A stretch of DNA of 63,560 nt, counting the filler, from Reclinomonas americana ATCC 50394 (lineage: Eukaryota), in NCBI GenBank assembly GCA_048213135.1. It is 15 parts of 15 records of this genome, joined end to end, with 100 filler letters (N's around TTAATTAATTAA, not from the genome) between each part and the next. Parts side by side here need not be neighbours in the genome. Positions count along the whole stretch, not along the records: positions 1 to 7,163 come from AFZH01018843.1; positions 7,264 to 12,516 come from AFZH01018845.1; positions 12,617 to 16,281 come from AFZH01018846.1; positions 16,382 to 24,562 come from AFZH01018847.1; positions 24,663 to 28,278 come from AFZH01018848.1; positions 28,379 to 32,014 come from AFZH01018849.1; positions 32,115 to 40,002 come from AFZH01018850.1; positions 40,103 to 42,310 come from AFZH01018851.1; 7 more parts are not named here. The stretch is one strand, 5' to 3'. The notes under the pieces are model-generated. The model made no database searches and had not been told where the DNA came from. It saw nothing but the letters and a program-made list of their open reading frames with translations. Made by a program: the position numbers and the translations under genes. This document shows positions 309 to 60,689 of this stretch, piece by piece. The first letter of the stretch is position 1. Every line of letters begins with the position of its first letter.

Positions 309-2113
309 ATGTGCGTGTGCGACAGTCCCGATGCCACGGACTGGATTCGCACTGTCTTTGGGCAGTGTGTGTTGCGTGCAACATCTTGCCATGATGTGAG
401 GGGAAAGAGAGTCCCTCATCACTGACTGCGCAGCAACACTCCGCTGCAAATGTTTGCTTTCTGGCTCGGCCTGAGGTCTGCCACTGCGTGTGTTGCATGT
501 GCTGTTGTTGCCTTTTGCACTCACACACATGCACTCGCCATGTGCACAGCTCAATCGCAGTTGCGTTCTGTTCCACGAAGATGCGTGTGTGAGTGTGCTC
601 GAAATCCTCATGTGTGTGTGATCGCCGTGCAGATCTGGCTTGTCGCCACGTTGCCGTTGCGTGTGCTGTGCATCGATGCCCTCTCTCCACACACACATGC
701 CCTCAATCCACACGCACACACACACAGTCAGTTCATCAGCAACTATCGGCTGGGACGAGCCGAGCACTTGCATTGGCTGTTTCTTCTCCAGTGGTTGATG
801 GGCGACACGGCGAATTTTGTTGGAGCCCTGATCACACTACAGCTGGGCACGCAGGTACACACACACACATTGCGCTGTGTGAGTCTGGCAGGCAGTTGCT
901 GACTTCGTTGATGATAAGATCGCCACCGGTGCCTCGTTTGTGGCCACCGACTGCCTACTCATGACGCAGTTCCTGTATGTTGCGTGAGCTCGTCATGGTA
1001 CGTGTCCTCGTGTACGCGCTTATCCACTCGCAACGCAGTATCACTTCCGCGACAAGAGACGTCGGCAGCGCGAGGGCGAGTTGCTGCCGCTTCTGCATGG
1101 TCCCAGGTGTGCTCTGGTCGGCGCTTGTTGCGCTCTGCTTGCTTTCACACTGACCCTGTCGATGTTAGTCCGAATGAGACCGTCTCTGTGGAGCCGTCGG
1201 CGGTGGTGAATTCGATTCTGTTGCCACTGGTGCTCACCACCGGCGTGCTGTTCTCGGTGTTTCACGTGTTCCACGGCGCCGCGGAACTGCCGGTCAGCGA
1301 CGCGACTGGTGTCGGTCGGCGGCAGTTGCTCACGCTGGGCGATATGCCCAACAAGGCACGTGCATGACCACGAGAGATCGCGTGGTGCGTGCTTGCACTC
1401 ATTCTGTGCTTCATAGTGTGGTGACATTCCGGCTGGCGAGGAGTGGCGACGCATTCCGGGACTGGTGAGACTACGAGAAGAGTGAGAGAGCACACGTTGT
1501 TCGCCGACGTGCCATCCTCCCTCTCTGCAGATCATTGGCTGGTTCGCCGCCACATGCTCCATGCTCTCCCGCATTCCGCAGCTGGTCAAGAACGTTTCGT
1601 GCGCGCGCGTGTCGGTGTTGCTTGTCTCGCCGCAACGCTGTGCTGAATGCACATCGCATTCAATCGTAGGTGCGGCGCAAGTCGACCGAAGGCCTCGCAC
1701 CAATGCTCTTTGTGTTTGCCGTGTGCGGCAATGCGTTGCGTTTTGTCGCCCCAACTCACCACCTCCGCGCGCAAGCAGCCGCTCATCTTTCACGTCGTGC
1801 AGCACATACGCCGCCTCTGTATTCATCAATGGCTCGATTCTGAATTCGCTGCCGTGGCTGGCCGGCAGGTGTGCATGTGTGTTTTTTCGCGATCGGCACA
1901 CCTCTGCAGTGACTGATCAGGAGTTGTCGTGTGTGTGGCACGCGCAGTTGCATCCCCATGATGCTCGACTGTGTCATGCTGACACAGATCTGGTACTACA
2001 CCCGCCGGAACAAGCCGCCAAAGGTGCCGGATGTGGACGAGAGTATGCAGAGCATGGCGTCGTTCCAGCCGCAGTCATTGGCCGACGACGATACCGACAC
2101 GAAGCGGGATTGA
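309..2113 (+). CDS. PQ-loop lysosomal amino-acid transporter (PQLC2/Ypq-like), ~13 exons
   Basis: Spliced MCVCDSPDATDWIRTVFGQCV...GLSSIAIWLVATLPQFISNYR...WLMGDTANFVG; second repeat SRIPQLVKNVRRKSTEGLAPMLFVFAVCGNATYAAS...LPWLAG; two PQ motifs. Confidence 0.9.
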
Positions 2114-2730
2114 CACATAGTAGCTGCCGATGCCATCGGCGATTTATTAACAATTAATAATCGAACCTTGTAGTTGTACATCTACCGGGCATGTGCCCCA
2201 CCAAGTGCACGCGTGGTGACCCGGCGACGCCATGTCCAGCGGGAGTCTCCGGTCGACCGCACTGCACCGATCACTGTCTACGGTGGCGCGTTCATCGCTC
2301 TTTCGTGGCACCTGGCTCGTTCTCGTGAGTGCCCACCATCCTGCGGCCGTATTCATCGTTTTGGAGATCGAGAGTTTCCAATCTTGCAAGCAATGTGATA
2401 TTCGAACTTCGCTACTCTGTGTCGTTGTCTTCGTCGTCCGACAACTCTCTCCCTCCTCTCCACCGCCATCTACCACGCTTCTCTGCAACCGCAGGCGGTG
2501 AAACGCGCCAACTCGACCGAGACTTCGCGCGCAGGACAACCCCGTTCCCGCCAATTTTGTGATTGTCATTCACACGCGGAGACAGGGTCGGTGGTGTGCA
2601 CGTGGAGCAGTCCGCACCCTTCCCCTCGAGGAGCAGCACGTCTGGTTGTGTGCGCGCGTGTGTGCGTGTGTGCGTGTGTGTTGTGTGGTCGGTTTCCCCC
2701 ACGCACACACTCCACTTGCAACTGCACACA

Positions 2731-5700
2731 ATGAGTGAGCAAGAGAGCGTGCCGCCGCCGGAAGACGCCAGCTCACTGCAGTCATCGTCACCGCCACTGT
2801 CCTCGGTGGCAGTGCCCGCCGCCGCCGCTGGAGAGGCGATTGTTCGTGTCAACAGCAACAGCAGCAGCAGCAGTGGCAGCGATGAAGACGATGACGATGA
2901 GGAAGAGATGGTGGCGATGACCGCTTCACTCTCGCCCACCATGGTCAACGGAGCAGCTGCTGCCGCCGCAGCTGCCGCCGCCGCCGCCGCTCTGTCGGGG
3001 TCGACTGGCGACGATTCATCATCGACTCCATCCACAGCGACAACGACGTCCTCGGCGTCGTCGACTGCGGAGAGCTTCACGGGGTTCCGGCGGGTGAAGC
3101 TGTACCAGTTGGATGAGGACGGGCAGGTGTGTGCGCGTGGTGGGGCTTGTGCATGTCAATGGCCATGTGCTCTCGGGACTCCTCACACACACGCGCACAC
3201 ACACACGCGCGCGCGCTTTCTCTCAGTCAATTGTGTGTGACATTTCGCTCTTGTCTCTGCGCTTGTGTTTGTGCGCTGGTGGTCGGGTGTGCGTGTGTGT
3301 GTGTGGGGAGGTGCTGTTGGGAGTGCGTGTGTGTGTCCGCGCCACTGCTGCGTCCCTCCAATCAACCCGTATCCGTCTTGTTCGATGTTGCCACACTCGC
3401 ACGCTCGCATCTGCGCTGTCTCGACTGCTGCACGCTGTTCTCTGTCTTGTCGGGGCGTGCAATCTGACGACTGTGCGCGTGTGTCTGTGTTCGCAGTGGG
3501 ATGACAAGGGAACTGGCCACGTGACGATCCGCGTGGGCGAGGTGCGTGCGGGGTGGGAAGCAGCAGGCGCAGAGACGCGGAGGGGCGTGGCACCACTGGC
3601 GACACAGACACACAGTGTCTATTCGCAGAGCACAGGGGGGAGAGGGGGAAGAGGGAGAGATAAGCATTCCACTTCCGCGTTCTCCGTCACATTGCATCGA
3701 GAAGGCGAGAAGTGAGGGAAAGCAACGAGCATCCCGCACCTTGGAGAATCTGTGTACGCTCTGTTTGTAATCCTTCTCGTCACTGTGCAAGCACACGGTG
3801 TATGTGTGTGTGCACCTATCGCTGCAATGGGTTTGCATGTGAATGTGTCGCATGTCTATGCTTGCTGCCTGTTGCCGTCGCCGCTGCGCCTGTGCATGCT
3901 GTTGGCAGTGTCCATGCTGTCGGCAGTCCTTGATTCTCTTTATTCCTTCACTCTCTTCTCGTTCCTCTTCACTGCGTCACATGTCGTTGTTCGATACTGA
4001 CCCATGTGCGCACACCAGACTCCTCGTGATGCCACGGTGGTCATGTCGCTGGAGACGACGGGAGAGTCGTTGTTCGAGGGCAAGGTGTCAGAGGAGGACA
4101 TTTACCAGCGACAAGGAGGTGGGTTGTACTCTCTACCCGACAGATGAGTGAGGGCGTTGCTGACGGAAACACGCAGAAACTCTCATTCTGTGGACGGATG
4201 CGGAATCGGGGATTGACCTGGCACTCAGTTTCCAGGAGGCGGAAGGCGCGCAAGAGATATGGCGTCAAATCAGGCAGATCCAGGGGCGACCCGATCTACG
4301 TTGCGCTTCTCATTGTTGTCGCTCGCTGCATGCTCTTGTACAGTCACTGAAACCTGTCGTGATTAGCAGCGGAGAGCACCGTCGAGGAGGTTTCCGAGTC
4401 CATCCTCCCAAAACCTGAAGTGGGCAACCTGGCCGAATTGGCGGAGACGCTGGCCTCGTTGCCCCCTTACCAAAAGGACGACGTGGCACAGCAGTTGCTC
4501 AATGAGGTGCGAGAGAGAGAGAGAGAAAACATCATGGCGCCGCGTTCTTTGCCGCTGTGTCCTTATTCTGTACTGTCACTGCTCTTGCATTCCGTCCACA
4601 GCAAGGGTACATGGCCAAGTTGATGGAGGTGTTCCACACGTGCGAGGACCTGGAGGATACCGCCGGTCTGATCCACCTGTACCAGGTGGCCAAATCAATG
4701 GGTGCGCGCGTCCGTGTATCTCGAGGCATGCCGTCGCTCGCTGGACTGACTTCTTATGTGCACAGTGATGCTGAACAATGCGCTTCTGGTGGAGATGTTG
4801 TTGGGCGAAGAGTTCGTGCTGGATGTGATGGGAATTCTCGAATGTGAGTCTGTTTCCTTCCTTCCTTCCCTGTTGCACTGCATGGTGATTGACGCCACCG
4901 CAGATGATCCCGAGAGACCGGGCGGTCGCAAGGCGTCGTACAGGGAGTTTCTGACGCAGCAAGCCGCATTCAAAGAGGTTGGACAGAGTCGTGTTATCTT
5001 TCGCGAAATCACTGCGAAGTTCTCACTCGCCCACGCAGGTCATCCCCTTCAAGGACCCAGAAGTAATCACCAAGATCCACATGAATTTCCGTATCAACTA
5101 CCTCAAGGATGTGGTGTTGGCACGTGTGCTGGACGACACCACCTTCAACCTGCTGGGCAGCATTGTGTTTTACAACAACCGCGACATTCTGGTGCACATT
5201 CACGAGGACACGCAGTGGCTGAACGAAGTGTGAGTAATGCCCGCTCATGCCTGTCGTTGCTCGGATGCTGATTGCAATCACCGCCAGGTTCAACGCTCTG
5301 CGATCACCTTCGACTGGACGCCAAGAATACGTGGATCTGATCATGCTGCTGCAAGAGCTGGTGAATCTGACCAAGACAGTGCAAGTGGCGCGCAGCGACT
5401 TGCTGAAGGCACTGTCGGAGCGCGGCCTCTTTGAGGTGCTCAGTACATCGCTCTCCGACGCCGCCGACGATGTGAGGCAAAGCACGTTGCGTTTCATCTC
5501 TTCCTCTTCTCGCTCTCTCTCTCTCTCTGTGTGCGATGAGAGAGTCTGACCCCGCGCTGTTGATGGACACTGCAGTGCCGACATTCTCCTAATCTGTGCA
5601 AATAATGAGGCGTCGATCCTGCGCTCGTTCGTGCTGCGGGAGCGGCCCGTCTATAATTTCTTCTCCTGCCTCGTGAGTCGACTATCTCTGGAACGCGACG

Positions 5701-7329: not shown

Positions 7330-7879
7330 GAGTACCCACCGGGTGCCGAGGTGCTGCCACTGATTTACCTGTTCACCGAGTTGTCGACTCCGTTCGTCAA
7401 CTTCCGCTACTGGTTGCTGGAGACAGACATGAAGGAATCGATGCTCTACATTGTCAATGTTGCGTCTTTTGTCCGTCGTATATCTCCCTTTGTGTGGGGA
7501 GAGACTGACGGCGGCACCGGGAGCAGGGCATTGCGATGGCGACTGCATTCTTTGTGTTCCGCATTCTCGTCATTCCCAAGCAGCTGGAGTTCTCCTGGTG
7601 GATCGCCGATCGCATTGCAAACGAGATTGGCTTGTGGCCTGGTGCGGGAACAAATGGCATCCTCTGCTTTCTTGTCGTTCGCTCGTCCTCACTGTGCGTT
7701 TTTTTCGCTGCGCAGCGTTTTGTATGAGTTTTGGTATGCTGGCTGGTGGCTGTCTGAACATCTTCTGGATGGCACTCATCGTCAAGGGCTTTGTGGAGCG
7801 CTTTGTCACCAAGGGCGAGGAAACCACTGAGTTTGAGAAGCTGAAGGACAGGAATGCGGCCAAGCTGCGCACCGAGTAA
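7330..7879 (+). CDS. TLC-domain membrane protein (TMEM56/TLCD4-like), 3' part
   Basis: TELSTPFVNFRYWL, LYIVNGIAMATAFFVFRI, LNIFWMALIVKG. Confidence 0.85.
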
Positions 7880-7921: not shown

Positions 7922-9835
7922 TTATTCATCCCCGCCGCCACCTCCGCCATCCTCCTGTTCTCCTCCGTTTTCCTCACCACTTTCGTCGCCGTCTTCACTG
8001 CCGTCGCCGTGAGTGGACACGGACGATGACGACGACGATGATGACGGCGATGGTGGTTGATCGTCGTCGTCATCGGCACTCTGCCTGCATTGCAATCGAT
8101 GCCGTTGCAGCACACTCGTGTCAGCAGGCATGGATGGTATGCGGTGCAGCAGTTCTCGGCGGCACGCTCACGCAACACTTGCTGCACCGTCACATTGAGG
8201 AGGTACTCGGAGAGCTGTCGTCGCTTCTCCAGCACCTCATCAATGCTGCGACTGGCAAACACGCCTAGCGGACCACGTGCCAGGAATGCAGGTGGCAGGA
8301 GTGCTAGTTGTGGTTCATCCAACACCTCTGCCAACTTGCGCAACACCTGTGTGGTGCGAGTGGGCACATGCATGATTTGATGTAAGGACACTCCCTGTGA
8401 CGCAACGGCAGCTCCATTCGGCAGCGACCCGTTCCCTGGATGCAACGTGAGCACATAGCCGGCGAGTTCGCGTCGCCGAGCCTCGCTCTCATCGACCGGT
8501 GGCGGCAACGCCTCGGCAATGTCCGCTGCGCCAACCACAAAATCAGATCTCCTCCATTCCTCTCCAGCCACATCGCGGTCAGCACGCACCCTCGTATCCC
8601 ATCTGCTTGGCCACGGTGGCCACCACATCAAACGTCATCCGATGCGTCTTGCTCCACATCGACTGCAGCCATTCAAACTCAGTAATGGTGGCATCCGATA
8701 TGGTTACCGGAACGCCGGCGGCCTCCAACCGCTGTCGCATGGCTTCGCACTGCTCCGCCGGCCCCACATGCAAACGCACCCGACCGGTTCCGCGCGCGTA
8801 CCAGAACAGCTGTTCGTGACAAGTGAGAGGAAGAACAAACAACAAAGTTGGCATTCTCGCCTCCTCCCCCACTTCACGAACCACATCGGCCTGGGCAAAC
8901 GACGGCCATCGCAGCACCGCCCGCAACGCCGTCACCGTCTCCCGATTCAGTTCTCGCAGTGTATCAGCGTCGTCCACATTGGAGCGCCCATCCATCCACA
9001 CGCACTTGTACTCGGCCGGAAACAACGACACATCCTCACAGGGCACATCTGCGATTCCCGTGAGGGAGATGGGAAGGGGAGCAGGAAACCTCCAAAAAAC
9101 GCTCACCAAGCTCCGCGCAGTGCGCGATCGCAGGCACGCCATATTGCCGCACGATGGCTGCTACGCGGAAGCATCCGAGCACCGACATGCTGACAACGCA
9201 GTCAGCACTCGCACAGACAGAAACAACCAGCAAGTGAGCGATCCGCGCAACGTTGTCACGCGGCAACACCCCAGCGCCTCTGCTCGACGAGCGTAGAAGA
9301 TGGTGTGCTCGTCAGGAATGTGGCACTCGACACGCAGAGCTTCCTGGACTGCGCGATTCTCAGCACGAGAGAGATCGAGAACCGAGAATGGAGAGCCCCG
9401 ATCAGACAACACACACACACACCATCACCAATGTTGACGGCCTCACAGTTCACCAACAGCACGTGACAAGTGAGTCCTAACCAGCGTACACACCGTCAGT
9501 GAACAAGAGAGAGAGAGAGAGGAAGAAGAGCGCACGCAACTCAATGCTCGTGCAACGTTCTTCGGATGTACTCTTCGCCCCGTGCCGAGCACACCAAACC
9601 CAAAGTGCGAGCGACACAGGTGCTCCCAACACACTGGCAGCTGCTCGCACGCACACGCACACACAAGGAAACCTCAGCAAGTTGTCACAAGCGCGTCACT
9701 GCAGACATCAATCACCTCTGCAGCCTCATGCCACTGCCGACACGTGCACAGCACAGACGAGTACAGGTCGCGAATGGATAGCCATGAGAAGCACTCGGCC
9801 CAGAGCTCAGCAGGCAGCCGCATCTCGCTGCTCAT
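7922..9835 (-). CDS. F-box protein with possible ClpS-like middle domain and PX-like C-terminal motifs
   Basis: N-terminus MSSEMRLPAELWAECFSWLSIRDLYSSVLCTCRQWHEAAE...VCWEHLC is a typical F-box; downstream domains tentative; 3' end approximate. Confidence 0.75.
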
Positions 9836-9894: not shown

Positions 9895-12455
9895 ATGCAC
9901 ACGCGCACAAGCAGCCTTGTGCTGCTGCTGCTCCTTGTCGTCGTCGTGTGTTGTACAGTGGCAACACGTGCAGTTGCGCCCTCCTCTCGTTCTCTCTCGC
10001 GCTCTGTGCACGACGTCTCACTGTTCGCGCGCGCGCAGTTGCCTGCACGCGAGGAGGTGCCGCCTGCCGCTGTGTCACTGGTGTACCAGTCGACTGAGAG
10101 TGTGCTCGATGAGGTCATGCGATTGGCCGAGAGTCGAACTGCGTTGTGGGGCTTGAAGAGCGACGTGGACCGGAGAGTAGAGCGCGGTCAGTCTCTCGCG
10201 CTCACTCACGCAGCAAGTCATCAATATAACACACACACATTGGGCAGATGAGTTGATGCACTGGCTGCAACCTGGTGCCGACGAGCTGGGTGTGACGCTG
10301 CGGTTGCGAGAGGATCCGCGTACGCGAGTCGTGCGCTGTGCGTCGTCCAAGGTGACACGCGTCTTGTCGGTGCGCTGCGCCGCCAACGTGCCAGGCAGCG
10401 ATCTGTGTGTGCCAGTTGTGCAGTGGCGCATTGCGTTGGAGCCGGGAGCGTCTGCGCCACGAGAGGACGCAGTGCGTGCTCTCATTGTGTTTGGCGAGCA
10501 CGGACGGGAACTCGTGTCGACCGAGATCGGCATGTCGCTGCTGGATCGAGTGCTGATGGCCACCGAGGGTCCCTGTGATCTCGACCAAGAGCCACTGGAT
10601 CGGTTCCTGTGGGAGCGTGTGGAGTTTACAGTTTCGTATCCTCGGCGGTCGGTCATCAGTGCCACACCAAACTGATCGATGCTCGCCGATAGATCTTTCC
10701 GCTGGTCAACCCGCACGGGCACCGCACGGCGCGCACCAGCAACGCCTGTTCGCGCACCAACAGCAATCAGGTCGATCTCAATCGCAACTACGAGAAGCAC
10801 TGTTGAGTGGTTCTTGTTGTCGGCTTGATCGCGAGGGGAGTTTGACACATGACTGTGCTCGTCACAGGGCGATCGCAGCATGAGCCCGGCCACGAGGAGT
10901 ACTCTGGCCCATCGGCATTCAGTGAGTTCGAGTCGCGTCTCGTGCGCCAAGCCGCCATGGCCTTTCGGCCGCACCTCTTTGTGTACGTCGTCGTTGCATG
11001 CATCGTGGCCGCCGGCTCCGGAACGAGATCTCTTACATGTGCTTGTTATTCGCGCAGCAACGTGCACTCGGGCGAGTTCTCCTTGTACTCGCCGTACGAT
11101 TACACGAGAGATCCACTGCCACCGGCATTCAACGTCATGAAGGAGATTCTGTCGGCGGCCGCCAATCAAGTACCGTGCCCGCGCTGTGTGATTGGTGCCG
11201 GCGGAGCGGCATCAACCTATGTGGCGTACGGCACCAGGTGCGTCTGCCATCCCTTGTACGTGCGACAACCCTCGCCTCATATCTATCTCTGTCTCTCTCT
11301 CTCCGCACCTCCATAGCATGGACTACATGTACGAGGAGATTGGCGTGCCGATGAGCGTGACTCTGGAGGTGTACAGCCATTCGCAACTGCAGACATGCGC
11401 CGGCTACTTCAATCCACTTTCTATTGAAGAACTCAACACCACCACCTCCTCGTGGACGCGCGGTTGCGTCCCCCTTTTCCTGCATCACCACCTTGCCTTC
11501 TTTCCGTCTATAACACGCACGTGCAGCGATTGTGGAGCTGGCGGTGGGCGTGCACGATCGCCTGTTCGGCAGCAAGACGCTGCCGCTTCCCGGCGGCGAC
11601 AACAGTGCACACCATCGCGTTGCTGAGCAGGTGGTCTCCGCCGCAGCACTCGGCAGCCGCGATTTTGTCAGTGGCTTGTGCGGCGCATCCGATTGCCTGC
11701 TGGGAGAGACGCCCATCACGGCAGAGTGGTACACGTACGTGCCGGCTGTGTTGGGACGCTCTGCGTCGTCTCTCGGTGATTCGACGACTGGAGACTCGTT
11801 GCTGGTGGGCGAGAAGCTCCATCGGCAGCAGTTGATCATCCGCACGCTGGCGGCCATCTCGCTGGGAGCGCTTGCGTTGTTGAGCTATGCCATTTTGAGC
11901 ACGAGGAGATCTGTGGGCTCTGTGAACGGCAGTGTGACACTCGGCGGCGGCGGCGGTGGCGTCGGTGGTGTCGGTACCGCTCTGTCGTCCACGCGGCGTG
12001 CACCACCACTGTCGCGCCAGTTTTCGTCGCGAACATCACAGTCGTATGCTGGCGGCAGTGGCTCCTTTAGCGGCAGCAGTGGCTCACTGGGTGGCGTGGG
12101 AGGTGCGGCTGGTGGAGTTGGCGGCAGTGCCGTAAGTGGCGGCTTGCGACCGGCCAGCTCCGCCACCGCACTGTCATCGCCTCCGACGCATAGCGTGTTG
12201 CGCCACGAGCGTGGACCAGTGGCAATGGTGAGACCAAGCGGCAGCAGCGGGGTGCTGGTGGGCGGAGGTGGTGGTGGCGGTGGTGGCGGCCCTGTAGCCA
12301 TAGGCAGTGTCGGCAGCTCCATCACCGTGCTGCCAGAGGAGACGCCGGTGATCGTGGCCGACGACAGTCTCTTTGACGTGCACCATGTGGCGCGTGGTGT
12401 GCCGTCGAGCCAGTACGACGCAAGTGGCTCCCCATTACGACCATCCAACGTGTAA
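9895..12455 (+). CDS. M14 zinc carboxypeptidase with signal peptide and C-terminal TM segment
   Basis: FGEHGRE (HxxE), RTNSNQVDLNRNYEKHW, YSGPSAFSEFE, NVHSG, GTSMDYMY...LEV; hydrophobic N-terminus; late TM LAAISLGALALLSYAIL. Confidence 0.9.
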
Positions 12456-12616: not shown

Positions 12617-15600
12617 AGACGAGCGCACAAAGTGCCATTTCAGTGTACGCGGTCGCGGCATGCCCAGCAAGCGTCGATTGCAAGTCAACAGGATGCGGTG
12701 CTCTCTACGTCGATCGCACACACATGCAGTGAGCTCGTACAGTGTGCGCCTCCACAACCGTGCCAGCAACACACGAACCGCACAGCCAGTGCCACCAGCT
12801 CGGCAATGCTGACGCCCGGGAAGAACCAAGTGTCGATACCACAATGCCGCATGCGCCGGCCACTTCATCCGCCACGTAAGTGAGACAAACAGGCGAAAGA
12901 TCACCGCATCGCACGAAGGGAACGCAACAGTCGACGGAGTGTGGAATCGACGACAAACTTGTGCGGTAGGCCAGCATAGTCACCGGGCGATGGCATGGGC
13001 GGAATCACGTACACTTCGGTGGAGGCCGCACTGTTGGTGGAACAATGAGCACCCTCGCACATAACATCACACCTTATCGGTGCGTCACGCACTTGGCCGC
13101 TGTCAGCACCGCCTCGACTCGATGTCTGCCGACGGTCTCCAGTGACATATCTCGGATGCAGGAGGCCAGCGACAAACCGAGGTGTGAAGCACACTCGGCC
13201 ATCGAGTCAAACAGCGGCAACTACACGAGTGCACGACACGAGTGAGCAGTGCTGCTGTGCAGCACCGTACGCGCCAAGCAGAACGCAACCAGACAGTGCG
13301 CATCAGTGCTGGCATACATGCGCTGCTCGGTAGTCAGGGGTCTGCAGAGAGACGACAGATTGCGTGAACACAAACGCGTGCGTTTCCCCGCCCGATCACA
13401 CGAATAACCTGCGTTCCCAGTTGGAGAGTTGCTGCTGCTTGGAAATGTCGCCGCCGAGGTACACATGACACAGCTCCGACAGCGACACCGGATGTCGCCG
13501 GTTCAGCCGGCTACGCAGATCCAACTCGGGCAACGCGTAGCCTTCGCGCAGATTGCCGAGACTGAACTCAAAGTCGGCAAACACCAGTTGCTCATCGGCA
13601 TCTGCCTGCTCATCCGCCGAACCAGATCCAGACGCCGAGTTCGACGAAGTGATGAGATTCGCCACCTCGGCGAGATCAACAAAGCACGCGGCGCGCTGAA
13701 AGCACGGTGCATGTGGATATGAGCTGCATAGCCGCTGCAAGTCATTATGGAAGCGGTACCCTGCGGCGACGTGGAATGTGAGGTGAATACCTCAAGGCGC
13801 AGAGACCACAGTACGTACCGACTTTGAGGAGAGAGTCACACTCGAACAGACCGGTCAGCAACTCCGTTGTCTCCCGCATATGTGGATTGCTGGCGCTACT
13901 GCATTCTGCATCAGCCTCTGCCGTCTCCTCGGCGCTCTCCATCTCCACAAACGGGCTGCGTGCCAACAAGCGCGGCAGATCCACCAAGTACACGCGGTTG
14001 GGTGTCGCAATTTGCAGAAGCTGCGCACAGAGAGATTAAGATGGCTGCAGAGAGAGAGAGCACGCCCCATGCACTGCCACACACGCACTGCCACTCGCGA
14101 GTTGGGGAAGCAATTCAGCGCCGGCTTCCACTCGGCATCCATGGCGGCAATCGGGGCCTGCAAAAGGTAACACTGTGCCGTGAGAGCCATACACACAAAC
14201 AAGGCACTCTCCAAAACACGCATTCACACCTCGAGGCACGCAGCCACCATCTCCGCCACCTGTTCGTGCGTTTCGACATTGTGGACCGTGACGTGCGCCG
14301 GAAGTGCCAGCACCTTGGTTCCCGGTTCGTCACTCTCCTCGTCTCTGCATACTCGCCATTGAGTGCACGCATGCGTCACCATCAATGGATAGGCCACCAT
14401 CGAACCTCTCCTCTGCATCACCCGTGGGGCGCATGTCGCCAGTGGAGATGACAGTCATCATACCGGTGCAGAGAACCTCGGGTTGACCGGCTGTCAGTTC
14501 ACCGGGCGCCGCCAGATTTTTTCGCTGCAACATCTCCACCGAGTTTCCGTGTGCCCAAGCCGCACGACGAGCGTGCTTCGTACCAGAGACACCCGGTGGC
14601 GGCACAGCATCGCCAGAAGACATGTCTGCGATTGCGACCTCAATCTCCAAGTGCGCCAGGTGGTCCACGTGGAGGATGAAGGCCTCCACTTGCGACGCCA
14701 GGTCGCCGTCACCTCTCGGTTCAACCAGGCCGTCAGCAAAGGCTCGGTGTACCACCTGTCGGGCGTGGCTCGACTGTCCGCAGCGCACCAACTCGGTGGC
14801 CACTGCCTCCAGCATGGAAGTGCGCCAAGCCGCAATCGGGTCGCTGCTCGAACAGTTTTCACAGTACCGACGCGGTGGTTGGTCGTCCACAAACCCATAC
14901 AGCATCTCCACATTGGCGCCGGAGTTGATCAGTCGCTTGGCCACATACCGTTGTGTGTACGACACCAGCTGAGCGGTGGGCGAGTGAGTGTGGGGATGGG
15001 TGGGTGAACAAGGATGTTGAGCGATGCACACATCGTACCGCAGGAAACGCGCACTCCTTGTCGTGGAGACCAAACTCGTGTAGCATGCGACGCGAGGCCG
15101 GCAGCTGCACCGAACAGAGTTGGAATGCAGTTGATAGCGGCCATGATGAATGAAGAAAAAGAGATTGAATAACCTTGTTGACTCGGATCAATGCCTCGAT
15201 CACTAGTTGCGGCACTCCGCGCTGGCTGTACGTGCGAGCAAACTCCATAGCCACATCGTGACGATCCTGTCGGCACACACCAAGTCAGAAGCTCGGCGAT
15301 CCGTGGTGATCACCACACTCGAGTCTCCACGCACCAGTGCGACAATCTCGCGAACCAGCGTTGCCACATCGACCTTGTCAAACAACTCCTCAAAGTGTGC
15401 AACATAGGCCGCCGCTCGTACACAACCGTCTCGCGACGCCTGCATCACCGCGGTCACAATGTCCAACAGTGACACACCTGCGTGATCGTATGAGTCTCGC
15501 AACACACGACCGCGATGCGCGCTGTGTGTGTGTGATTGCAACTGCGCATGTGCTCGTCGCCGTAGTAGTGCACCAGCATGACCCGGAAGACCGCCGGGTG

Positions 15601-49065: not shown

Positions 49066-51378
49066 TCATCTTGTCGTCGACGACGGCCGCCTGTGCCAAT
49101 TCAGAGTGAATACGGGGACACGAACGCACACACACACACATGCGTGCATGCTGGCCTGGACGCAACGCATGGAGTGGTGAGGGGAACCGACTGAGGTGGT
49201 ACGTTGGCGCGCCAGGAATCGCACCGATGCGCATTGCCTCTTCGCGAGCGCATGCAAACAGTGAGTTTATGGAGGCAAACAAGCGCCTCGCAACAACAAA
49301 ACACACACACCGTCCACGATTTGGTGACTGGGGATCTCTCGATCCTTTAGGTACGCCCTCACATTGTACTGCTCGCCAAAGATGCTCGTGTCGTTCAGCA
49401 CACGCAGAGTACGGACAGCGTCCACCGCTGCATCCACGAACTCGGTAAGAAGGCACGCGAAGGCATGGCGACGAGCAGCACAAAAAGACACACTGCACGC
49501 ACGATCGACAAACTCCACAATCGCGAATCCCTTGCTACCGGCACGCATTTTGGCCACTGGTCCGACACAGAGGCTGAGATACGCCAGCAACTCATACTTG
49601 CGTTCGTCTGCGGTGCGCGGGAAGCCTGTGATGAAGACAGTGCGACTCTGCGCGCCATCAAAAAACGCGCGATGTATGAGGTCCACCGAGTCCTTCCTGC
49701 ACAAAAGTGGTCAGTGTGATGGCGAAAGAAGCGCCAGCCTGGCCAGTTTAACACGTAACTGACTCGGGAGGTACACAGAGCACGAGTCGGTGAGCGCGTG
49801 GTCCACCACCGTAATGCGATTCAGCACTTGCCACAGATCATCTTCAGTCGGTGGCGCGCCAATCGGGATCGTGCGCAGGCGTGTGAATGGTGACAGGGAG
49901 CGTGGTGGTTCGCGCTCATCAGGCGATCGTGCTCGCCGCGGTGGCGGTGGCGACGCCCGCGGACCGGCAAATCGTGGGTTGTCGTGGCGCGGGGGTGAGC
50001 GTCGACCCGGCGGTGAACGTGTTCGCGAATCGCGCCACCCATCCTGCGGATGCCCGTTGCCAGCACGTGCAGGGTAACGATCACGGTGCGGCGGTGGTGG
50101 CGATGCCGATGACAACGGCGGCGGCAGCGGTGGTGGCGGTGGCAAATGGCGAGCTGGTGGTGGCTGGTGATAACTGTGGTGTGGAGGCGGAGGATGTGCA
50201 AGTGGCACTGGAGGTGGCGGCACCGTGTCGCCACTGTACGGTGGTCGTGAGTCCCGTCGTGGAGAAGACCAGCGACCGCGAGGCGGCGCCGCAGATGCCG
50301 ACTGCAGACACACGCACACACACACACACGCAGCGTGAGCATAGAAGCACGTGAGACAAAGAGGAGACGCCGTACACACCTCGTAACGGCGAGCAGAGGG
50401 TGATGCGCCGCCGCCGCCGCCGTAGTCTGGATAATCGCGTCGCGACACCGAATGTGGCGGCGGAGGTGGCGGCGGCGGTGGTGGTGGCAGCGGTGGCTGC
50501 CGACGATCGCTGTCGCTACCACGCCTGTCATACGAGTCGAACGACGAGGGAGCGCGTCTGTCGTCTGCATTTGCGAACCGATCGGGTGGCGGCGGTCGAC
50601 GGCCTTGGTCGCGGTGATCGTGCTGATCGTAGTAGGGATTGCGCTGACGGTGATGGTCTCGAATGTGATGCACTGTCACCACTGGTGGCGGCGGCACTGG
50701 CGGTGGCGGCGGCGGTGGTGGTGGCGGAGAATGCTGACGACGATGATGATGATGATGGTGGTGGTGGTGACGGTGATCGTCGTGATGCTGGTGCGGGTGA
50801 TGCTGCTGCGATGGTGCCGATCGACGCGACTCGTGGTGCGATCGATGACGATCATCACCAGCGCGCTCACCGACAGGCGACGGCGACCGCGGCCGCTTTC
50901 GATCCTGCCGGTCCTTGTGTTCACGCTCACGGCGCTCGTTGTGATTGGGCGAGTCCCACGACGACAGCGGCGACGGACTCTGCTGCCCCGCGGTCACCTG
51001 CAGCGTGTCACCTGCCGCCGCGCCAGTCGATGATGCTGCTCCCTTGCTCGCCACACCCGTATCCTCCGCATCATCCTCCGCCATTCCCACATCGTCCTCA
51101 TCATCGTCATCACGCGCATGTCGCGACGAAGGTGCACCCCCACGCGACGCACTGGTGGCCGCCGTGACCGAGTCGGCAGTGGCTGCACGGCTGGCCGCAG
51201 TCACCGAGGTCACCAGTGTGCTACTGCTGCCACTGCCTCCTCCGCCTCTGCTGCTGCCGCCACCACCACCGCCAGTGCCAGCGAGGGTGGTGGCGGGGGT
51301 GGATGGAGTGGTAGTGGTGGTGGTGTTTGTGGTGATGGCACTGCGCGGGCGCACAACAAAGCCTCCGGGGAACTGCAT
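49066..51378 (-). CDS. RRM protein with long Pro/His/Arg/Ser low-complexity N-terminus
   Basis: RTVFITGFPR...GPVAKMRAGSKGFAIVEFVDPVDA...LNDTSIFGEQYNVR; start and end inferred. Confidence 0.7.
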
Positions 51379-52243: not shown

Positions 52244-52343
52244 NNNNNNNNNNNNNNNNNNNNNNNNNNNNNNNNNNNNNNNNNNNNTTAATTAATTAAN
52301 NNNNNNNNNNNNNNNNNNNNNNNNNNNNNNNNNNNNNNNNNNN

Positions 52344-54849
52344 CTCTCGGCCGCTGCCTCCACTACCACCGCCACCCACGCCACCGTCCACGCGTGCCAG
52401 TAGTGGCAGTTCGCGAGCTTCACTTGGATCACCATCCTCCGCAAGTGCATTTGCGCTCGCGACTCCCACACACGCGCACACTGGCAAGAGCAGTGACAGT
52501 GACGACAGCACCGACACGGAAGAGGAGGCAGTAGAGGGCACCACCACCACCACCACAACAACAACTGAGAGCGACGAGGGTGTGGTCATCATGTCGGTGC
52601 CTCCACCCATGCCACGGACGACGCATCGGATGAAGGACGATGAGCGCGTGACTGCCACAGCAACCGCCACTGCGACAAGCTCAATGCCAATGGGCGACGA
52701 TGAAGCGTGGTCGGATCTGGATGGCGACGAGGACGACGATGAGGAGGAAGAGGAGGAGGAAGAGGTGTGATGATGGCAGTCAACAGCAGCTGCGATTGAG
52801 CGCTCATTGTGTGTGCGTGTGCAGGGCATGCGGATTCACGTGTCGCGTATTCCCGTGTCGCCGGGCTTGGATGAGTACGCGCACATGGCGGCGCAGGTGG
52901 CGCTGGATGAGAGCGGGCAGCAGCGATCGTCGGTGGCCGTGGAGGCGCAATTGAGACGGCTGGTAATGGACGATCGGTTTGCCAATTCGCATCCGCGGGT
53001 GCTGGCGTTGCTGATGCCGGCCAGTGGAGCGCCGCAAGTGTGCGCCGAGTGCAGTGCGCCCGATCCCGATTGGGCGTCGGTCAATGTTGGCATTTTCTTG
53101 TGTATCGGCTGTGCGGGAGTGCATCGCTCGCTCGGAACACATCTCTCCAAAGTGCGCAGTGTGACGCTGGATGAGTGGAGCGAGGAGTTGTTGCAGGTGC
53201 GTGCAAGCGTGTGCGGTTGTCGCGTTTGAGGTTGCCTGCTCAATAACATTTCGCGATTGCTGATGGCAGGAATTTGAGACGGCGTGTACGCATGACCACG
53301 CGAGGGAGTGGGAGTACCGCCTGCCACCGTTTTGCAAGCCACAGGCGCAGGATGCCAACACCCTCAAGGCCTGGTTCGTGAAGCAAAAATACCAAAAGCA
53401 GACATGGCGACGTCGCGAAGGCGATCCTCCTAAATGGACCAAAGGTCCGTCTGGCGCCACCGTGAGCGTCTCTGCAAGTCGCATTAATAGTTTATGAGGT
53501 GTGCGTGCAGTCATTTATGATGGACCGGGTGCCATGCTATCGCAACGCGCCATGGCCAAGTTCCGACCCGCCGACTCGTTGCAAGTGGTGACTATTGCTG
53601 CTCGCGGCACCGTTCTCCAGGTGTGTGGGCCGCAGTCTTCGTGCACGTGCTCGTGGTGTACTCCCTTTTTCTTTGGTGAGCTCACCGCTCCGGCAGGCGT
53701 ACCCCGTCGACATTAACCACTCGTCGTTCCCCGTGTACGTCGGCACGATTCCCGTCGATGCGCGAGTTGCCATTACCGCACCGCCGTTTACGCCCACAGG
53801 TAACATGCTCTTGCGCACTCGCACACACACTGGCATACTTGTGTTGACGCGTTGCGGGATATGCGTGCTGCAGGTCCGCAACGACGCTCCGTGGTCACCG
53901 TCACCTCGCCCTCCGACGAGAGTCTCCAGTGGAGTCTCACCTCGGACTCCGAGCAGGAGGTGATTGAGTGGGCGTTGTATCTGCGTGCATCGACGTTCTG
54001 GGACGCCTCGGTGCGGCAGTCGTCGCTCGGTTCGCCGGGCGTTCGTGCGCTGCTGGAGGGTCGCCCCGACAACGACATGCTGATGTTGCTGGTGAGTTTC
54101 TCGCTGCACTTGTCCCCTTGTGCTCAGCGACTCACTGCGGCGAGGGGGCGGCAATAGCGTGACTTGAGAATACGTGAAGAACACGTGCATGGCTATCTGG
54201 AGAAGGTCGGCGGGCGTTTCCGGTCGTGGAAGAAGCGCTACTTTGTGTTGCAAGGATGCACGCTGTTCTATTTTGACAAGCAAAAGGTATCCACGCATGC
54301 ATGCCTGTGTGAGAGCACTACCTGCAAGATGTGACTGCTCACGCCACCATGTGCGCTCCGTCGCAGCTCAAACGCCTCAAGGGCAGCATCTCGCTGCGCA
54401 ACTCGGTGACCACCATGACCGACGATGCCGGACGCCACGGCTTTGTGCTGTCCATTTTGACGCACAGCCGCTGCTTCCAGCTGGCCAGCAAGTCGCGCGA
54501 CGACCTGCTACGCTGGAAGCTCGCCCTCGATCAACGCGTGGCGCAGTTTCAACAAGGCGCCCTGTATCCGAACGTTTCGTCCGTTTCTCCCTGTTTCCTT
54601 CTGTTGGTACACACTTTTCTGACAACCACGGAATCACATGCGCAGGGCGTGCCTACATTTGGTCGCTGGACCGGCGTCACGCACTCGGTGGACCTGGTGA
54701 GTGTCGCCGAGCACGCGTACGCGATAAAACTCTTCGACCAAAAAACTCCCCGCATTGCACAGGATGACGGCGATGTGACGGTGGATGGCGGCATCGGCAG
54801 CAGCAGTAGCAGCAGCATAAGCAGCATGGCTACACACGCTCCACCATAA
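52344..54849 (+). CDS. ArfGAP + PH-domain protein; 5' end missing
   Basis: CAECSAPDPDWASVNVGIFLCIGCAGVHRSLGTHLSKVRSVTLDEW; PH domain HGYLEKVGGRFRSWKKRYFVL...LKGSISL...DLLRWKLAL. Confidence 0.9.
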
Positions 54850-56494: not shown

Positions 56495-59072
56495 TTACTT
56501 TTGTTCTTCTACTTCCTCCTCATCCTCCTCCTCTATACGCGATGCCAGTGGCACATTGTCTTGCTCCCCCTGCTCGATGTCGTCGCTCTGAGAGTGGCGA
56601 TGAGTGTGCGAGAGCTCTCCACTCTCCAGCAAATGTTGCGTGCGTGCTTACCTTGCCGCCATCCATGAGTGTGTCGAGCTCCACGTCACCGTCTCCGCCG
56701 CTGGCGTTTATGGTGGCTAATGTTGGGCGGTGCTCGATGGCGGCGATGCGTTGCACGCAAATGGCCTCCTTGTCCCAGTCGACGCGCAGCACAAAGAAGA
56801 GCATGGCGATAATGACGACGATCAGCGCGGCGAGGAGGCCGCACCACAGGCCGACCACGCCCCAGTTCTGTGGGGGAAGGGAGAGAGAGGATAGGATGAG
56901 AAGGGGGAAAATGACAAGGAGGAACGAGAACCAAGCTCGCGCGCAAAAAGAGAGGCGGGAACCGCGCGACAGAAGGAACAATGAGAACTGAACTCGCCCG
57001 CATGCAGAGAGTGAAAGAGGGTCGAAATCGAAGAGAACAAGCATTGCAGCAAAGCAAGCGAGCGAACGAGAATCGTTTGCATAGAGAGAGGGAGGTTTGA
57101 CATGCGAAGGGAAGTACCAGAAAGAGACAGAGAGGGTTGATAGGAGAAGGGAGAAACCGACAAGGAGGGAGAATGAGAACACGCAGAGCGAGAGAGAGAG
57201 AGTAAATATGAGTAGGGAAGTTTGCTGCTTGAGAACTGATGTCGCTCGCGGAGAGAATGTTGGTGAGAAGGCAGAAAGCGAAGGGTGCCTAGAAGAAAGA
57301 ATGAGCTCGTACGGCGAGCGCGAGAGAGACAGAGAGGGTTGAAATGGGAAGTGAACGACGAAAGGAGGAAGAATTCGCTGCAAAGAGAGAACGAGAGAGG
57401 GTTGAAACAGAAAGGGACACATCCCACGGAAAGCAGTACGAAAACTGCGCTCAGGAGGGGAAACCACAAAGGTCGCTGCTTAGCAGAGGAATCCGCGTGG
57501 AGAAAGAGAGAGAGAGAAGGGATGGCAAGGGCAAGAGAGCGACTGAATCAAACCCTTGGTTGGACGGAGAATAAGAGAGAAGAAGTGCGAGAGTAGTCTG
57601 GAGGCCAAACATGTCGCTCACCAGGTAGAATGTGAAACTGCAGAGTACGACAAAGGGTGAGCAACGCAGCGAGGGAAACAACGCATGGAGGGGAGCACGC
57701 ACAAGACGCCAAGCGGGGTGCCGACAAGGTAGAATCCCACAGCATGTGCCTGTGTTTGATGCGTGTCAACAACCCCACGCAACCGAATTCACAAAAAGAA
57801 CACTGAGCAGCGTAACAATGGCGCCCTGCGTCGGTTTGCCAAGGCCCTTGAGCATGCCGCCGAGCGTCGATTGCATGCAGTCGCCAAGCTGCGGGGGTGG
57901 TTTCGGTGAGATTCCGACAGTGGCCACAGGAAATCACCACCTCCAACGTACATGCATAATGTAGCCAAAGAGCAGCAGTTGTGCGATCAGCGACACGACC
58001 TCTGGCGAGTCGGAGTACGCGTAACCCATGACGTGACGCGTGGCGATACCGGTGCCACACACCACCACGCCAATGCTCAGCGCACTGCCGACGGCCACAA
58101 ATCCTGCAAGCGAGCGGTGAGGTTAAATAATGCGCTGCCGACCGAGATCATGAAAAAAGAGACAGAAGCGCACCAGAGAACTTGGCATCCGACGGCCGAT
58201 TTTCACCCATGAGATTGCCGACACGCACAGTGGTCGCAATGCTGCGCAGGAAGGAGTAAGCACGCGGAGAAATCATAGCGCGCAAGCAAATGGAAATGTA
58301 CCCGACGCCAAGAGGCAACTGCGGGAAGCACGAGTTAATGACGAGGGCGAGCGAGGAAAAGAGAGGTGACACGCTCGCGCACCATGAAGATCAGCGCCGT
58401 GAAATTGAGGACCACGCTATGCGCAGCGAGTGACTGCTCGTTGATGAGGCCGGCGAGGAAAATGGTCACCTCGAAACCCTGCGCAGTGGGAGAATCATGG
58501 AGGGTTGGTGACTCCCTACAAACAAAATAGCAAAAGAAGAGGACGCACCATGGCCTCGGCCACCAGCATTACCGAGCCAGCGATGCCGATTTGGATAAAC
58601 ACTTTCATATCGGGCCAGCGGAGCTCGGAGCGCGACCAGCCTGCATGGGTCGTGGTGAGCAGGGGAAGAGGAAAAGGGAGGGGAAGGGAGGAGGTGATGA
58701 CGCAACCAAACCACGTCGCCTTGTGGTACTTTTTGAGCACGGTGAACAGATACATGCACGCAAACATGGAAAATCGCTGCGCGCAAGGGTGATGCAGTGA
58801 GCGAGACAAGGGAGCGCGAGTAGGAGGGTGTGTGGGATGAATCGGCTGACCGAAAGGGAGGTGGCAATGGCGGAGCCGATGAATCCGTAGCCGAGGGCGT
58901 AGATGAAGACGTAGTTGAAGACGATCTGTCGGGAGGGGAAGGGCGGAAGGGAAAGGGTGGAGTGAGGGCGAAGAGGGATGAACGGAGAGGGTGAAGATTG
59001 GAAAGGGAGAGATGACGACTGAGATGTTGGGTGAATGACAACAGAAATAGTCGAAACACTTCTGGTGAGTGT

Positions 59073-59103
<31 letters not shown>

Positions 59104-59431
59104 CGACAAGGATGAGAAAGTATTGAAAAGAGGTTGCCAGAGAACACTGTGAGTGGGGTGGAGACAAGAACCAAAGTGAATGAGAGATCACGCGATGGCA
59201 AAGGGGGCGAGTCACCAGCTGATAAAAGCATGGGAGAGATAATTAGCAAGAGAGTGACAAGGATGGGAAAGAGTTGAAAGCAGATTGCGCAGAAGTAGAG
59301 CAACGCGCGAACCAGAGAGAGAGAGAGAGAGNNNNNNNNNNNNNNNNNNNNNNNNNNNNNNNNNNNNNNNNNNNNTTAATTAATTAANNNNNNNNNNNNN
59401 NNNNNNNNNNNNNNNNNNNNNNNNNNNNNNN

Positions 59432-59477
<46 letters not shown>

Positions 59478-60689
59478 CAGAATCAGCAGGAAAGCCAGAG
59501 CATGGCGAAACATGGGACGAGAGAGGCGACAGAGAGAGCCAGCGAGTTAGTGCACACGCTGCAAAGCGACGACGAGCAACCCATGACCTTAGTGGGAGAG
59601 GGTGACGATAGCAAGAAAGCCACCGACAGATGAAACACGGAGCCAGCGAGGAGAGCTCCGAGGCACGACTGCAGTTGCGTGCAAGCGACGCAACATTCAA
59701 CACGTTCACAATCAGCACACAGGCAAGCGACGGCCATATGATGTTTTGCGCCAGCAGGTACTTGGCCAGCACATTGAACATGATCTGCGCCAGAGAATGA
59801 GCTCGAAACACCGCGTTGCCTTCTCCGCCAAGCACACGCAACATTCGGCCACATGCCACAGGAGAGCACGCGTGAGAAAAGGTCAGTTAGCGCCGACACC
59901 TCTGGATCCTGCCCGAGCAGCACCATGGTCGGTCCGGCCACCCAGCACAACTGCATCGCCAGTTGCAGCAATCAGAAAACCACATTGCTTTCCCACAATC
60001 ACAGCGAGGTTTCTTCCGCACCGGAACAAGCACGAGGAGCACAAGAATGGTCGACAACACGACGCCACGTTGCAAGACACCTCCGACCATGCGCATGTTC
60101 TCTGTCGCGCACAGCAAATGAGAGAGGACTACAGAGCAGGAGAGTGAGATGTGATGACGCACTGGCGCCATATGCTTGACTGGCCAGTGTATCCTGCGAG
60201 CATGCACAGTCTGAGCACAACAGCAGCTGACTGAGTGGGCTTGAAAAATTTCGCAACAATCGCGGAGATGAACCCAGAGGCCACGTGCGTGAGCATGCCA
60301 GTCCACATGTTTCCGAGTGATGCAGCGGCCAACTGCAGTGTTCCGAGGTGACCCTGTGATCGATGCACCGCGTGTCAAATCGTTCATTTGTGAGACAGAA
60401 TGCAGTCAAGATTGAGATGTTTACCACAAAGAGCAAGTCGACGACTGCCAGACTCCAGAAGCTGGCAACAGAGTGGTGTGAGAGGGTGAGGGTGAGGGTG
60501 TGTGTGTGTGAGAGAGAGAGAGAGACCTGACTGTGGTCAACACCACGGGACCTGCGAGTGACCATAGTGCACGCTCCTCTGCCCACAATCTGCGTGGTGA
60601 CGAGTGAGGTGCAGGCGATTGATTACTTGCGAGTGTGTTGTGTGTGTGCAGCAGACCGGGCGGAAGACCACTTTGGTGGTGTGTGCTCC
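56495..60689 (-). CDS. MATE (SLC47-like) efflux transporter; spans gap 59332-59431; first exon beyond next gap
   Basis: LWSLAGPVVL...FVGHLGTLQLAAASLG...SAIDTLASQAYGA; GYGFIGSAIATS; ATTVRVGNLMG; GFYLVGTPLG; GVVGLWCGL...DWDKEA. Confidence 0.93.

Follow-up and report, generated by a model that had tools for sequence, protein, structure and literature searches.

The window analysed here, a 63,560-nt stretch of Reclinomonas americana DNA, is intron-dense and carries, among others, PQ-loop, PP4R3, anoctamin, Vps26, Vps54 and MATE genes. Best protein matches to the genes of the window were 58-64% identical, named matches (from an oomycete, algae, fungi and plants) were 45-51% identical, and when the Vps26 exon was used to scan metagenomes, 80 loci came up, almost all of them at <=50% identity and with no close relative represented. 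Rfam matches in the window consisted of a tRNA-Leu at 199-280 and chance-level rows only. The introns begin with two kinds of donor (a slash marks the junction throughout): class A, with the consensus xAG/GTGCGTG, and class B, with the consensus xx/GTTGCGT or, more generally, GT-T-NN-GT, to which roughly one in four of the short introns here belongs. Class B forms a discrete and abundant group of donors, and its consensus is the ordinary one moved by a single nucleotide.

Both classes were recovered by a donor-blind EM in which the donor position was hidden and the starts were random. It invariably divided the donors into G/GTGCGTG (62-68%) and x/GTTGCGT (32-38%), both in 8/8 starts of the full model (logL 1584 to 1715) and in 5/5 starts when exon positions were left out (logL 1563.7 to 1664.8). 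In the EM result GTTGCGT reads as G, then T, then class-A positions +2 to +6, so that +5 is C and +6 is G. The two N positions of class B hold GC, followed by TC, GA, CA and AC, and mirror +3/+4 of class A; GC fills them in 28/38 class-B donors, which makes for a more uniform heptamer than that of class A. Beyond the core, class B is C-rich at +8/+9, while class A has G/T at +7 to +10, a difference that a pure shift does not predict. GTTGCG donors were far commoner than expected from independent position frequencies, both among 87 introns (15 vs 0.78 expected) and in the 151-intron set (28 vs 1.3 expected). An earlier note on this DNA, which listed 31 GTTGCG donors and described their consensus as displaced by one nucleotide, is borne out by the two classes of the EM and by this excess.

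Spliced alignment to homologues, a donor-agnostic procedure constrained to GT and AG only, confirmed seven of the listed donors (371, 560, 656, 979, 1735, 5486 and 38827) and added GTTTCGT donors at 1594 and 37890. Homology thus demands excision as GT...AG at 9 class-B junctions, and frame-compatible GT...AG pairs were present in all modelled class-B introns. On the plus strand of the PQ-loop gene, GTTGCGT introns were placed at 371..433 (15/16 homologues), at 560..632 after a 10-nt microexon at 550-559 (13/16), at 656..727, splitting LP/Q of the PQ motif (15/16), at 979..1038 (donor 14/16, acceptor 10/16) and at 1735..1802, splitting GNA/TY, with an upstream exon that corresponds to positions 26-45 of the PQ-loop profile (14/16). 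A GTTTCGT intron at 1594..1669 (15/16) was absent from the earlier list. That list had five GTTGCG donors among about 12 introns of this gene; the 9 junctions consistently placed by most homologues agree with it, containing five GTTGCGT and one GTTTCGT, with 1040-1530 being a poorly conserved stretch.

Outside the PQ-loop gene, homology placed GTTGCGT introns at 5486..5575 (plus strand, PP4R3 gene, 4/5 homologues) and, in the anoctamin gene on the minus strand, at 38755..38827, where the downstream exon matches the Anoctamin profile from position 167. Another anoctamin intron, with a GTTTCGT donor, lies at 37823..37890 on the minus strand (spliced alignment to a homologue; EM posterior 1.0). 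Two further listed sites were consistent with homology. A probable GTTGCGT donor at 44847..44910 on the plus strand marks the end of a Vps26 exon, at which 27/30 homologue alignments stop, and its intron leaves the contig; a probable GTTGCGC donor at 40148..40153 on the minus strand follows an exon whose length, counted to 40154, fits the homologue spacing, and its intron enters the linker. Pfam searches with 59 single exons flanking class-B introns gave domain continuity for PQ-loop, anoctamin, RING and M14 only.

Most of the remaining class-B introns received high donor posteriors from the EM. On the plus strand, GTTGCGT introns with a posterior of 1.0 span 7459..7526 (3 options; also used by a signal-aware gene model), 11463..11526 (2 options), 24862..24930, 28695..28764 (within an LRR) and 45163..45257 (Vps54 gene, 2 options). 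Other heptamers on this strand were GTTTCGT at 10631..10692 (posterior 0.99; signal-aware model), GTTGAGT at 10802..10867 (1.0, with a Peptidase_M14 match in the upstream exon), GTTGCGG at 25987..26045 (1.0) and GTTCAGT at 45396..45454 (1.0, 2 options). On the minus strand, GTTGCGT introns with a posterior of 1.0 span 8079..8176 (also in the signal-aware model), 21760..21820 (junction residues NRI/.DAGA, 2 options), 35176..35249 and 42066..42136, which splits a RING finger (RFGLL/.C) whose downstream exon matches zf-C3HC4 from position 17. The intron at 39503..39573 had the same donor and posterior and is ambiguous, as the homologue alignment picks 39562 in a poorly aligned stretch. GTTGCGT introns also span 35008..35065 (0.99, 6 options) and 34357..34421, the sole frame-compatible donor of its gap. 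The minus strand further carries GTTGCGG at 15647..15716 (0.85; signal-aware model), GTTTCGT at 17719..17838 (0.99), GTTGCGA at 19500..19566 (within an LRR; 1.0, 2 options, LRR_4 match in the downstream exon) and GTTACGT at 49697..49759 (1.0).

The signal-aware model alone placed GTTGCGT at 23487..23555 and GTTTCGT at 54574..54645 on the plus strand and, on the minus strand, GTTGCGT introns at 8347..8406, 12809..12928, 13221..13289, 19085..19156, 40841..40922, 58641..58706 (MATE gene) and 59559..59694, the last with an uncertain acceptor. It also used the minus-strand introns 59785..59842 (GTTGCGT, frame-compatible) and 60194..60257 (GTTGCGA, with junction residues SAI/DTLASQAYGA). GTTGCG was present at 31/31 coordinates of the earlier list on the strand given, the number for minus-strand sites being the upper coordinate. 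The signal-aware model used 23 of these donors but left eight unused (4300, 9251, 9540, 23816, 40153, 44847, 46190 and 49166), and it contributed 9 GTTGCG donors that are new relative to the list (8176, 8406, 15716, 19156, 35249, 39573, 40922, 58706 and 59842), counts that come from gene models self-trained on 63 kb and that presuppose class B in the model. Apart from 40153 and 44847, the unused sites are kept as candidate donors. GTTGCGC at 4300..4305 (plus strand) is frame-compatible with an acceptor at 4369 and was picked by 0/5 homologue alignments; models favoured 23741 (GTGCGAC) instead of GTTGCGG at 23816..23821 (plus strand); the EM favoured 46183 (posterior 0.83) over GTTGCGT at 46190..46195 (plus strand), and the signal-aware model favoured 49139 over GTTGCGT at 49161..49166 (minus strand). 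The two others, both on the minus strand, are GTTGCGC at 9246..9251 and GTTGCGT at 9535..9540, the latter followed by CACTGAC and then TAG 66 nt downstream.

The eight unused sites could be taken to mean that GTTGCG hexamers occur near exon ends by chance and that the real donors lie elsewhere, as could the hexamer count in the window, which is just mildly above that of shuffled sequence (88 copies vs 67.6 +/- 8.7 in 100 shuffles, 1 of which reached 88). We regard such an artefact as very improbable. The heptamer GTTGCGT, which makes up 42/88 of the copies, was strongly oriented with respect to the coding strand (37 sense vs 5 antisense, p 4e-7), while GTTGCG[ACG] was not significantly so (27 vs 19). 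An early analysis of exon-exon gaps met many donor options per gap, with 4 unique; among the 396 frame-compatible candidate GT sites of 97 gaps, GTTGCG was found 18 times vs 4.2 expected and GTTGCGT 15 times vs 2.0 expected, and a GT[AG]NG alternative was absent in 13/18 of the gaps with a GTTGCG candidate. The junctions fixed by homology argue against chance as well. Class B might instead be a separate intron type, either minor-spliceosome (U12-type) introns or mobile introners with a donor of their own. Its rigid donor recalls U12-type introns, which likewise have a second, more rigid donor consensus beside the main one, and young introner copies. U12-type introns are characterised by donors of the form RTATCCTT and a TCCTTRAY branch site, however, whereas the class-B consensus is GTTGCGT and class B shares with class A a branch-like motif of the form YTSAY, and we rejected a U12-type assignment. 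The introner reading was rejected too: all-against-all blastn of 151 intron interiors returned 1 class-B pair, matched through a CT repeat, and the interiors of the 38 class-B introns were otherwise without mutual similarity. Both classes had a median length of 68-70 nt, a YTSAY branch-like motif within -45 to -7 (34/44 class A, 15/19 class B; median 19 nt from the acceptor) and a CAG acceptor (C at -3 in 38/44 and 15/19, respectively). As length, branch-like motif and acceptor are equal in both classes, one spliceosome suffices; a comparison of these three features gave no sign of a second one, and a separate intron type is scarcely credible.

The exon side of the junction bears on how a class-B donor is read. 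G occupied exon position -1 at 37/44 class-A but 1/19 class-B donors (p 3e-9), at 13/16 vs 0/9 when only homology-verified junctions were counted (p 1e-4), and at 4/38 in the larger class-B set. As internal controls, GTT-starting donors with G at +5 (GTTNG) had a -1 G in 10/11 cases and GTTNNGT donors in 4/34. Class-B exon positions -3 to -1 had a log likelihood of -75.8 with the class-A profile shifted by one, -80.5 with the background and -108.2 with that profile in the same register. The shifted profile exceeds the background by no more than 4.7 log units, which leaves the loss of the -1 G, rather than a positive fit, as the firm result. The shifted register proposed in the earlier note is supported in part, by the two donor classes and by this displacement on the exon side. 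Loss of the -1 G agrees with displacement of the entire motif by one position and speaks against a bulged U, in which ordinary U1 pairing would hold at -1, +1 G and +2 U, one U would be bulged and pairing would resume on GCGU. A bulge preserves the pairs at G+1 and U+2, a single T insertion in GTGCGT would yield such sites with the exon unchanged, and the excerpts of Tan et al. 2016 (PMC4856993) describe a bulge at +3 (or +2) register as validated in human cells. We nevertheless consider it unlikely: it predicts that the -1 G is retained, its same-register likelihood lies 32 log units below the shifted one, and in duplexes with the textbook U1 5' end, which may not be this organism's, bulging gains no stability over shifting (+2.5 vs +0.4 kcal/mol, with -1.4 kcal/mol for the best class-B duplex and -9.7 kcal/mol for class A). 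Class B pairs weakly with that end in every register, which counts against the shifted reading too, and these energies do not discriminate between the registers. Similarly doubtful is a variant snRNA, that is, a second U1 paralogue or a non-textbook U1 5' end complementary to GUUGCGU(CC), which would read class B with no shift. The uniformity of the class-B heptamer, its own C-rich +8/+9 and the very weak pairing with textbook U1 all speak for a variant, and snRNA changes were likewise put forward as possible for the GTGCGTG donors of Ostreococcus in the excerpts of Irimia and Roy 2008 (PMC2483917). Against it, a variant with one inserted base would still prefer a -1 G, a preference that was not seen, and branch and acceptor signals are alike in both classes. 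Rfam (at gathering and E<=1) found no U1, U5 or U6 genes in the 63,560-nt window, which holds no snRNA gene of any kind and so lends the variant no direct support.

We lean, if only slightly, towards the reading that the window contains true GT-AG introns, removed by the ordinary (U2-type) spliceosome and falling into two donor classes, class B being the class-A motif shifted by one base. Under the shifted reading, the G at exon -1 of class A would take the role of intron +1 in class B, and the usual +1 G would become U. A reader of UGCGU, presumably the U1 5' end and then U6, would pair with one and the same core whichever the class, the pairing RNA sitting in a +1-shifted register in class B, and the catalytic step would cut at the GU found one base upstream of the position indicated by that register. 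More tentatively, and as a conjecture to which we give a little less credence than to its negation, this lineage may uncouple the cleavage site from the 5' splice-site register genome-wide: one RNA, probably a U1 with a 5' end re-tuned to UGCGU given the poor pairing of the textbook end, would dock on that core, the cut would fall at a GU directly before it or one base earlier, and a quarter of introns would be read at +1.

To our knowledge, displaced donor reading was previously known only from rare human introns. According to the excerpts of Tan et al. 2016 (PMC4856993), reading of donors in a shifted register is well established for human cells, and in the donors attributed there to Roca and Krainer 2009 every base pair with U1 moves by one position while the cut is still made at the GU; taken together, the validated bulge and asymmetric-loop registers account for 1.5% of 201,541 human 5'ss. 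The names INPP4A and GTF2H1, offered in the earlier note as human examples, are absent from Tan et al. 2016 (PMC4856993). As far as the human shifted-register sites are described in those excerpts, they and class B both start with GU and then resemble normal positions +2 to +6. The human sites are rare, however, whereas the displaced class here comprises ~25% of introns; their core is UAAGU rather than UGCGU. The bulge +3 (or +2) register (Roca et al. 2012, cited in the excerpts of Tan et al. 2016) also produces donors that begin GUU, one U more than the consensus has, but this register predicts that exon -1 G is kept, and in class B it is not. For class A the nearest likeness is with Ostreococcus lucimarinus, whose constrained introns are described in the excerpts of Irimia and Roy 2008 (PMC2483917) as having a 5' GTGCGTG and a branch GACTGACG; the atypical GTGCGTG consensus is common to both, and a CTGAC-type branch motif is also found here. 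In contrast to that genome, described in the same excerpts as intron-poor, the window is intron-dense and has a second donor class. The proteins encoded here reach at most about 64% identity with any match, which sets the window apart from that alga. The string GTTGCG has 0 occurrences in Irimia and Roy 2008 (PMC2483917), and full-text literature searches yielded, among the matches listed, no description of a GTTGCGT/GUUGCGU donor class.

At issue is whether a spliceosome can use displaced registers routinely and what then sets the exact cut. If about one in four introns of a genome had the displaced signal and the others were ordinary introns alike in every other respect, this would constitute a natural experiment, in which hundreds to thousands of matched sites would let the contributions of U1, U6 and the catalytic core to the choice of the cleaved phosphate be asked. 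Gene finders trained on a single donor model would place the junctions of roughly one intron in four wrongly in such a genome.

The window of 63,560 bases contains 15 short contigs of about 1.3 to 8 kb each (G+C 54-62%) from an intron-dense eukaryote. The contigs are joined by 14 copies of one linker, in which 44 N stand on either side of TTAATTAATTAA (7164-7263, 12517-12616, 16282-16381, 24563-24662, 28279-28378, 32015-32114, 40003-40102, 42311-42410, 44911-45010, 48963-49062, 52244-52343, 55146-55245, 59332-59431 and 60690-60789), so the window is a chain rather than a continuous sequence, and features crossing a linker are not neighbours by sequence. A coding model for which the window served as training data identified 109 coding segments in same-strand runs with gaps of about 60-90 nt. 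Pfam matches on these segments (PP4R3, anoctamin, Vps26, Vps54, symplekin, WD40, LRR, TPR, MatE and others) indicate that the model follows real genes. The best protein matches reached 58-64% identity; those with a named source (an oomycete, algae, fungi, plants) reached 45-51%. A search for RNA genes across the window found solely tRNA-Leu(CAA) at 199-280 (+), which is intronless, is followed by a T run and sits immediately upstream of the PQ-loop gene.

The earlier note proposed 31 introns beginning with GTTGCG, and the hexamer was indeed present on the expected strand at all 31 sites. It was mildly enriched in the window (88 copies compared with 67.6 +/- 8.7 in shuffles, 1 of 100 of which reached 88), with T as the next base in 42 of the 88. 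Using nothing beyond the strand of each gene block, we observed 37 sense versus 5 antisense copies of GTTGCGT (p 4e-7), and 89 versus 36 for the ordinary donor GTGCGT. Strand bias was absent when GTTGCG was followed by A, C or G (27 sense versus 19 antisense).

We next located donors with no motif presupposed. Given just GT and AG, a Viterbi gene model returned 172 introns, many of them spurious, among which GTTGCG (11) and GTGCGT (10) were the commonest donor hexamers. A strand-masked run gave 134 introns, and we applied expectation-maximisation (EM) to the 97 that lacked N, were at most 200 in length and had a coding score of at least 5 in both flanking exons. For each gap, all frame-compatible GT/AG pairs without in-frame stops were considered (mean 4.1 donors), and the donor profile was initialised at random. 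A single profile yielded the consensus G|GTgcGtg, while two profiles converged from 8 of 8 starts on aG|GTGCGTgtgt (62%; class A) and ....|GTTGCGTc (38%; class B), raising the log-likelihood from 1584 to 1715. With exon positions removed from both signal models, identical classes emerged from 5 of 5 starts (68% and 32%; 1563.7 to 1664.8). Among the 396 candidate GT sites, GTTGCG occurred 18 times (4.2 expected) and GTTGCGT 15 times (2.0 expected); 13 of the 18 gaps holding these GTTGCG candidates had no GT[AG]NG alternative. Donor counts were restricted to introns with a donor posterior of at least 0.9 and a length of 45-130 nt, which left 87 of the 97. GTTGCG began 15 of these, compared with 0.78 predicted from marginal base frequencies, exceeding the independent-position expectation against which the earlier note had proposed to judge it.

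Class B proved broader than GTTGCG, with the general form GT-T-NN-GT. Of the 87 introns, 22 (25%) were class B (GTTGCGT, 13; GTTTCGT, 3; GTTGCG[AG], 2; GTTGAGT, GTTCAGT, GTTGTGT and GTTACGT, 1 each), 50 had GTNNG donors and 15 fitted neither. A signal-aware gene model, whose totals are descriptive rather than independent since it already contains class B, gave 151 introns of 45-130 nt (89 class A, 38 class B, 24 other; 28 GTTGCG). It retained 23 of the 31 proposed sites, left 8 unused (4300, 9251, 9540, 23816, 40153, 44847, 46190 and 49166), six of which are still plausible donors, and added nine further GTTGCG donors.

Junctions were also placed by homology, using a purpose-written protein-to-DNA spliced aligner that charges a flat penalty per intron, accepts every GT...AG and ignores the rest of the donor. 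For the PQ-loop gene, a 42-residue exon used as query found 53 homologues, of which we used 16, mostly longer and full-length-like. Class B accounted for 6 of the 9 consistently placed junctions, all on the plus strand: 371 (15/16 homologues), 560 (13/16), 656 (LP|Q; 15/16), 979 (14/16), 1594 (GTTTCGT; 15/16) and 1735 (GNA|TY; 14/16). The ordinary donors were 476, 855 and 1869 (+), and conservation between 1040 and 1530 was too poor for placement. The donor at 560 follows a 10-nt microexon coding SIA (550-559, +; position from 13/16 alignments), flanked by two short introns. In PP4R3, the intron from 5486 to 5575 (+) was recovered with 4/5 homologues, and site 4300 was picked by 0/5. Alignment of the anoctamin gene to one close homologue (P0001) placed class-B donors at 38827 (GTTGCGT) and 37890 (GTTTCGT), both on the minus strand, together with five GTG[CA]GT donors and one GTTCGT. 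At 40153, the exon up to the site matches the homologue spacing in length, and the intron enters the linker. For Vps26, 27 of 30 alignments (the best 30 of 120 listed matches) ended exactly at 44847, 64 nt before the contig end. Removal of the homology-placed introns as GT...AG preserved the frame; cutting one base deeper with the acceptor unchanged would shift it in all of them.

Several further features were noted. The anoctamin (TMEM16-like) gene (37548-39941 and 40185-40833, -) continues on both sides of the linker at 40003-40102 with its order and orientation correct, indicating that at least its two contigs are placed as in the genome. A Vps26 intron at 43769-44440 (+; donor GTGGGCG, 30/30 alignments) measures 672 nt, ~10-fold the usual length in the window. 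The homology-fixed ordinary donors at 476, 855, 1869, 4119 and 43769 (+; GTCTGCC, GTACACA, GTGTGCA, GTGGGTT and GTGGGCG) all had G at exon position -1, and several lacked G at +5; the ordinary class is tolerant of a weak intron-side match if the exon side is strong. Many ordinary donors lead directly into (GT)n microsatellites, e.g. 40335-40416 (-), 29074-29150 (+) and 22820-23149 (+), and since class A reads GTGT at +7 to +10, the exact donor inside such runs is ambiguous.

Class B is the class A motif displaced as a whole by one base into the intron (|GTTGCGT versus G|GTGCGT). Class B could be read by either of two known non-canonical U1 pairings (Tan et al. 2016, PMC4856993): one in a register shifted by one, the other with a U bulged out at +3 or +2. 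With a bulge, exon position -1 would face an unchanged U1 base and G there should remain preferred, whereas with a shift the intron +1 G would occupy that U1 position, freeing -1. With signal models blind to exon bases, G at -1 was found in 37/44 class A but 1/19 class B introns (p 3e-9), and homology-verified junctions alone gave 13/16 and 0/9, respectively (p 1e-4). GTT donors retaining +5 G (GTTCGT, GTTTGT) kept -1 G in 5/5 cases (10/11 in a larger set), compared with 1/17 (4/34) for GTTNNGT, indicating that the loss is not due to T at +3. Positions -3 to -1 of class B fitted the class A profile better when it was moved by one (log-likelihood -75.8) than in the same register (-108.2), with background at -80.5. 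The one-base displacement that the earlier note described is confirmed, and it involves the exon side as well.

Three observations count against a simple +1 shift of donor reading. The margin of the shifted profile over background is small, positions +8/+9 are C-rich in class B and G/T in class A, and a textbook U1 5' end, which may differ from that of this organism, forms almost no duplex with class B in any register, compared with -9.7 kcal/mol for class A. Either the U1 5' end is tuned to UGCGU in this organism, or the core is read by another RNA or a protein, or a second U1 is present. The shifted-register interpretation as a whole is supported in part: the displacement is established and the pairing partner putative.

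Full-text literature searches for a description of GTTGCGT/GUUGCGU, or of a shifted-register donor class like class B, found none. Class A shares GTGCGTG and a CTGAC-type branch with the 'atypical' consensus reported for Ostreococcus lucimarinus, for which possible matching snRNA changes were raised (Irimia and Roy 2008, PMC2483917); the string GTTGCG does not occur in that paper. Class-B introns are not mutual copies, and introners were rejected. In human, predicted users of validated bulge or asymmetric-loop registers are put at 1.5% of 201,541 5' splice sites, whereas the displaced class here comprises about a quarter of introns. Classes A and B did not differ in length, branch-like motif, branch-acceptor distance or acceptor; given this shared architecture, one spliceosome suffices for both.
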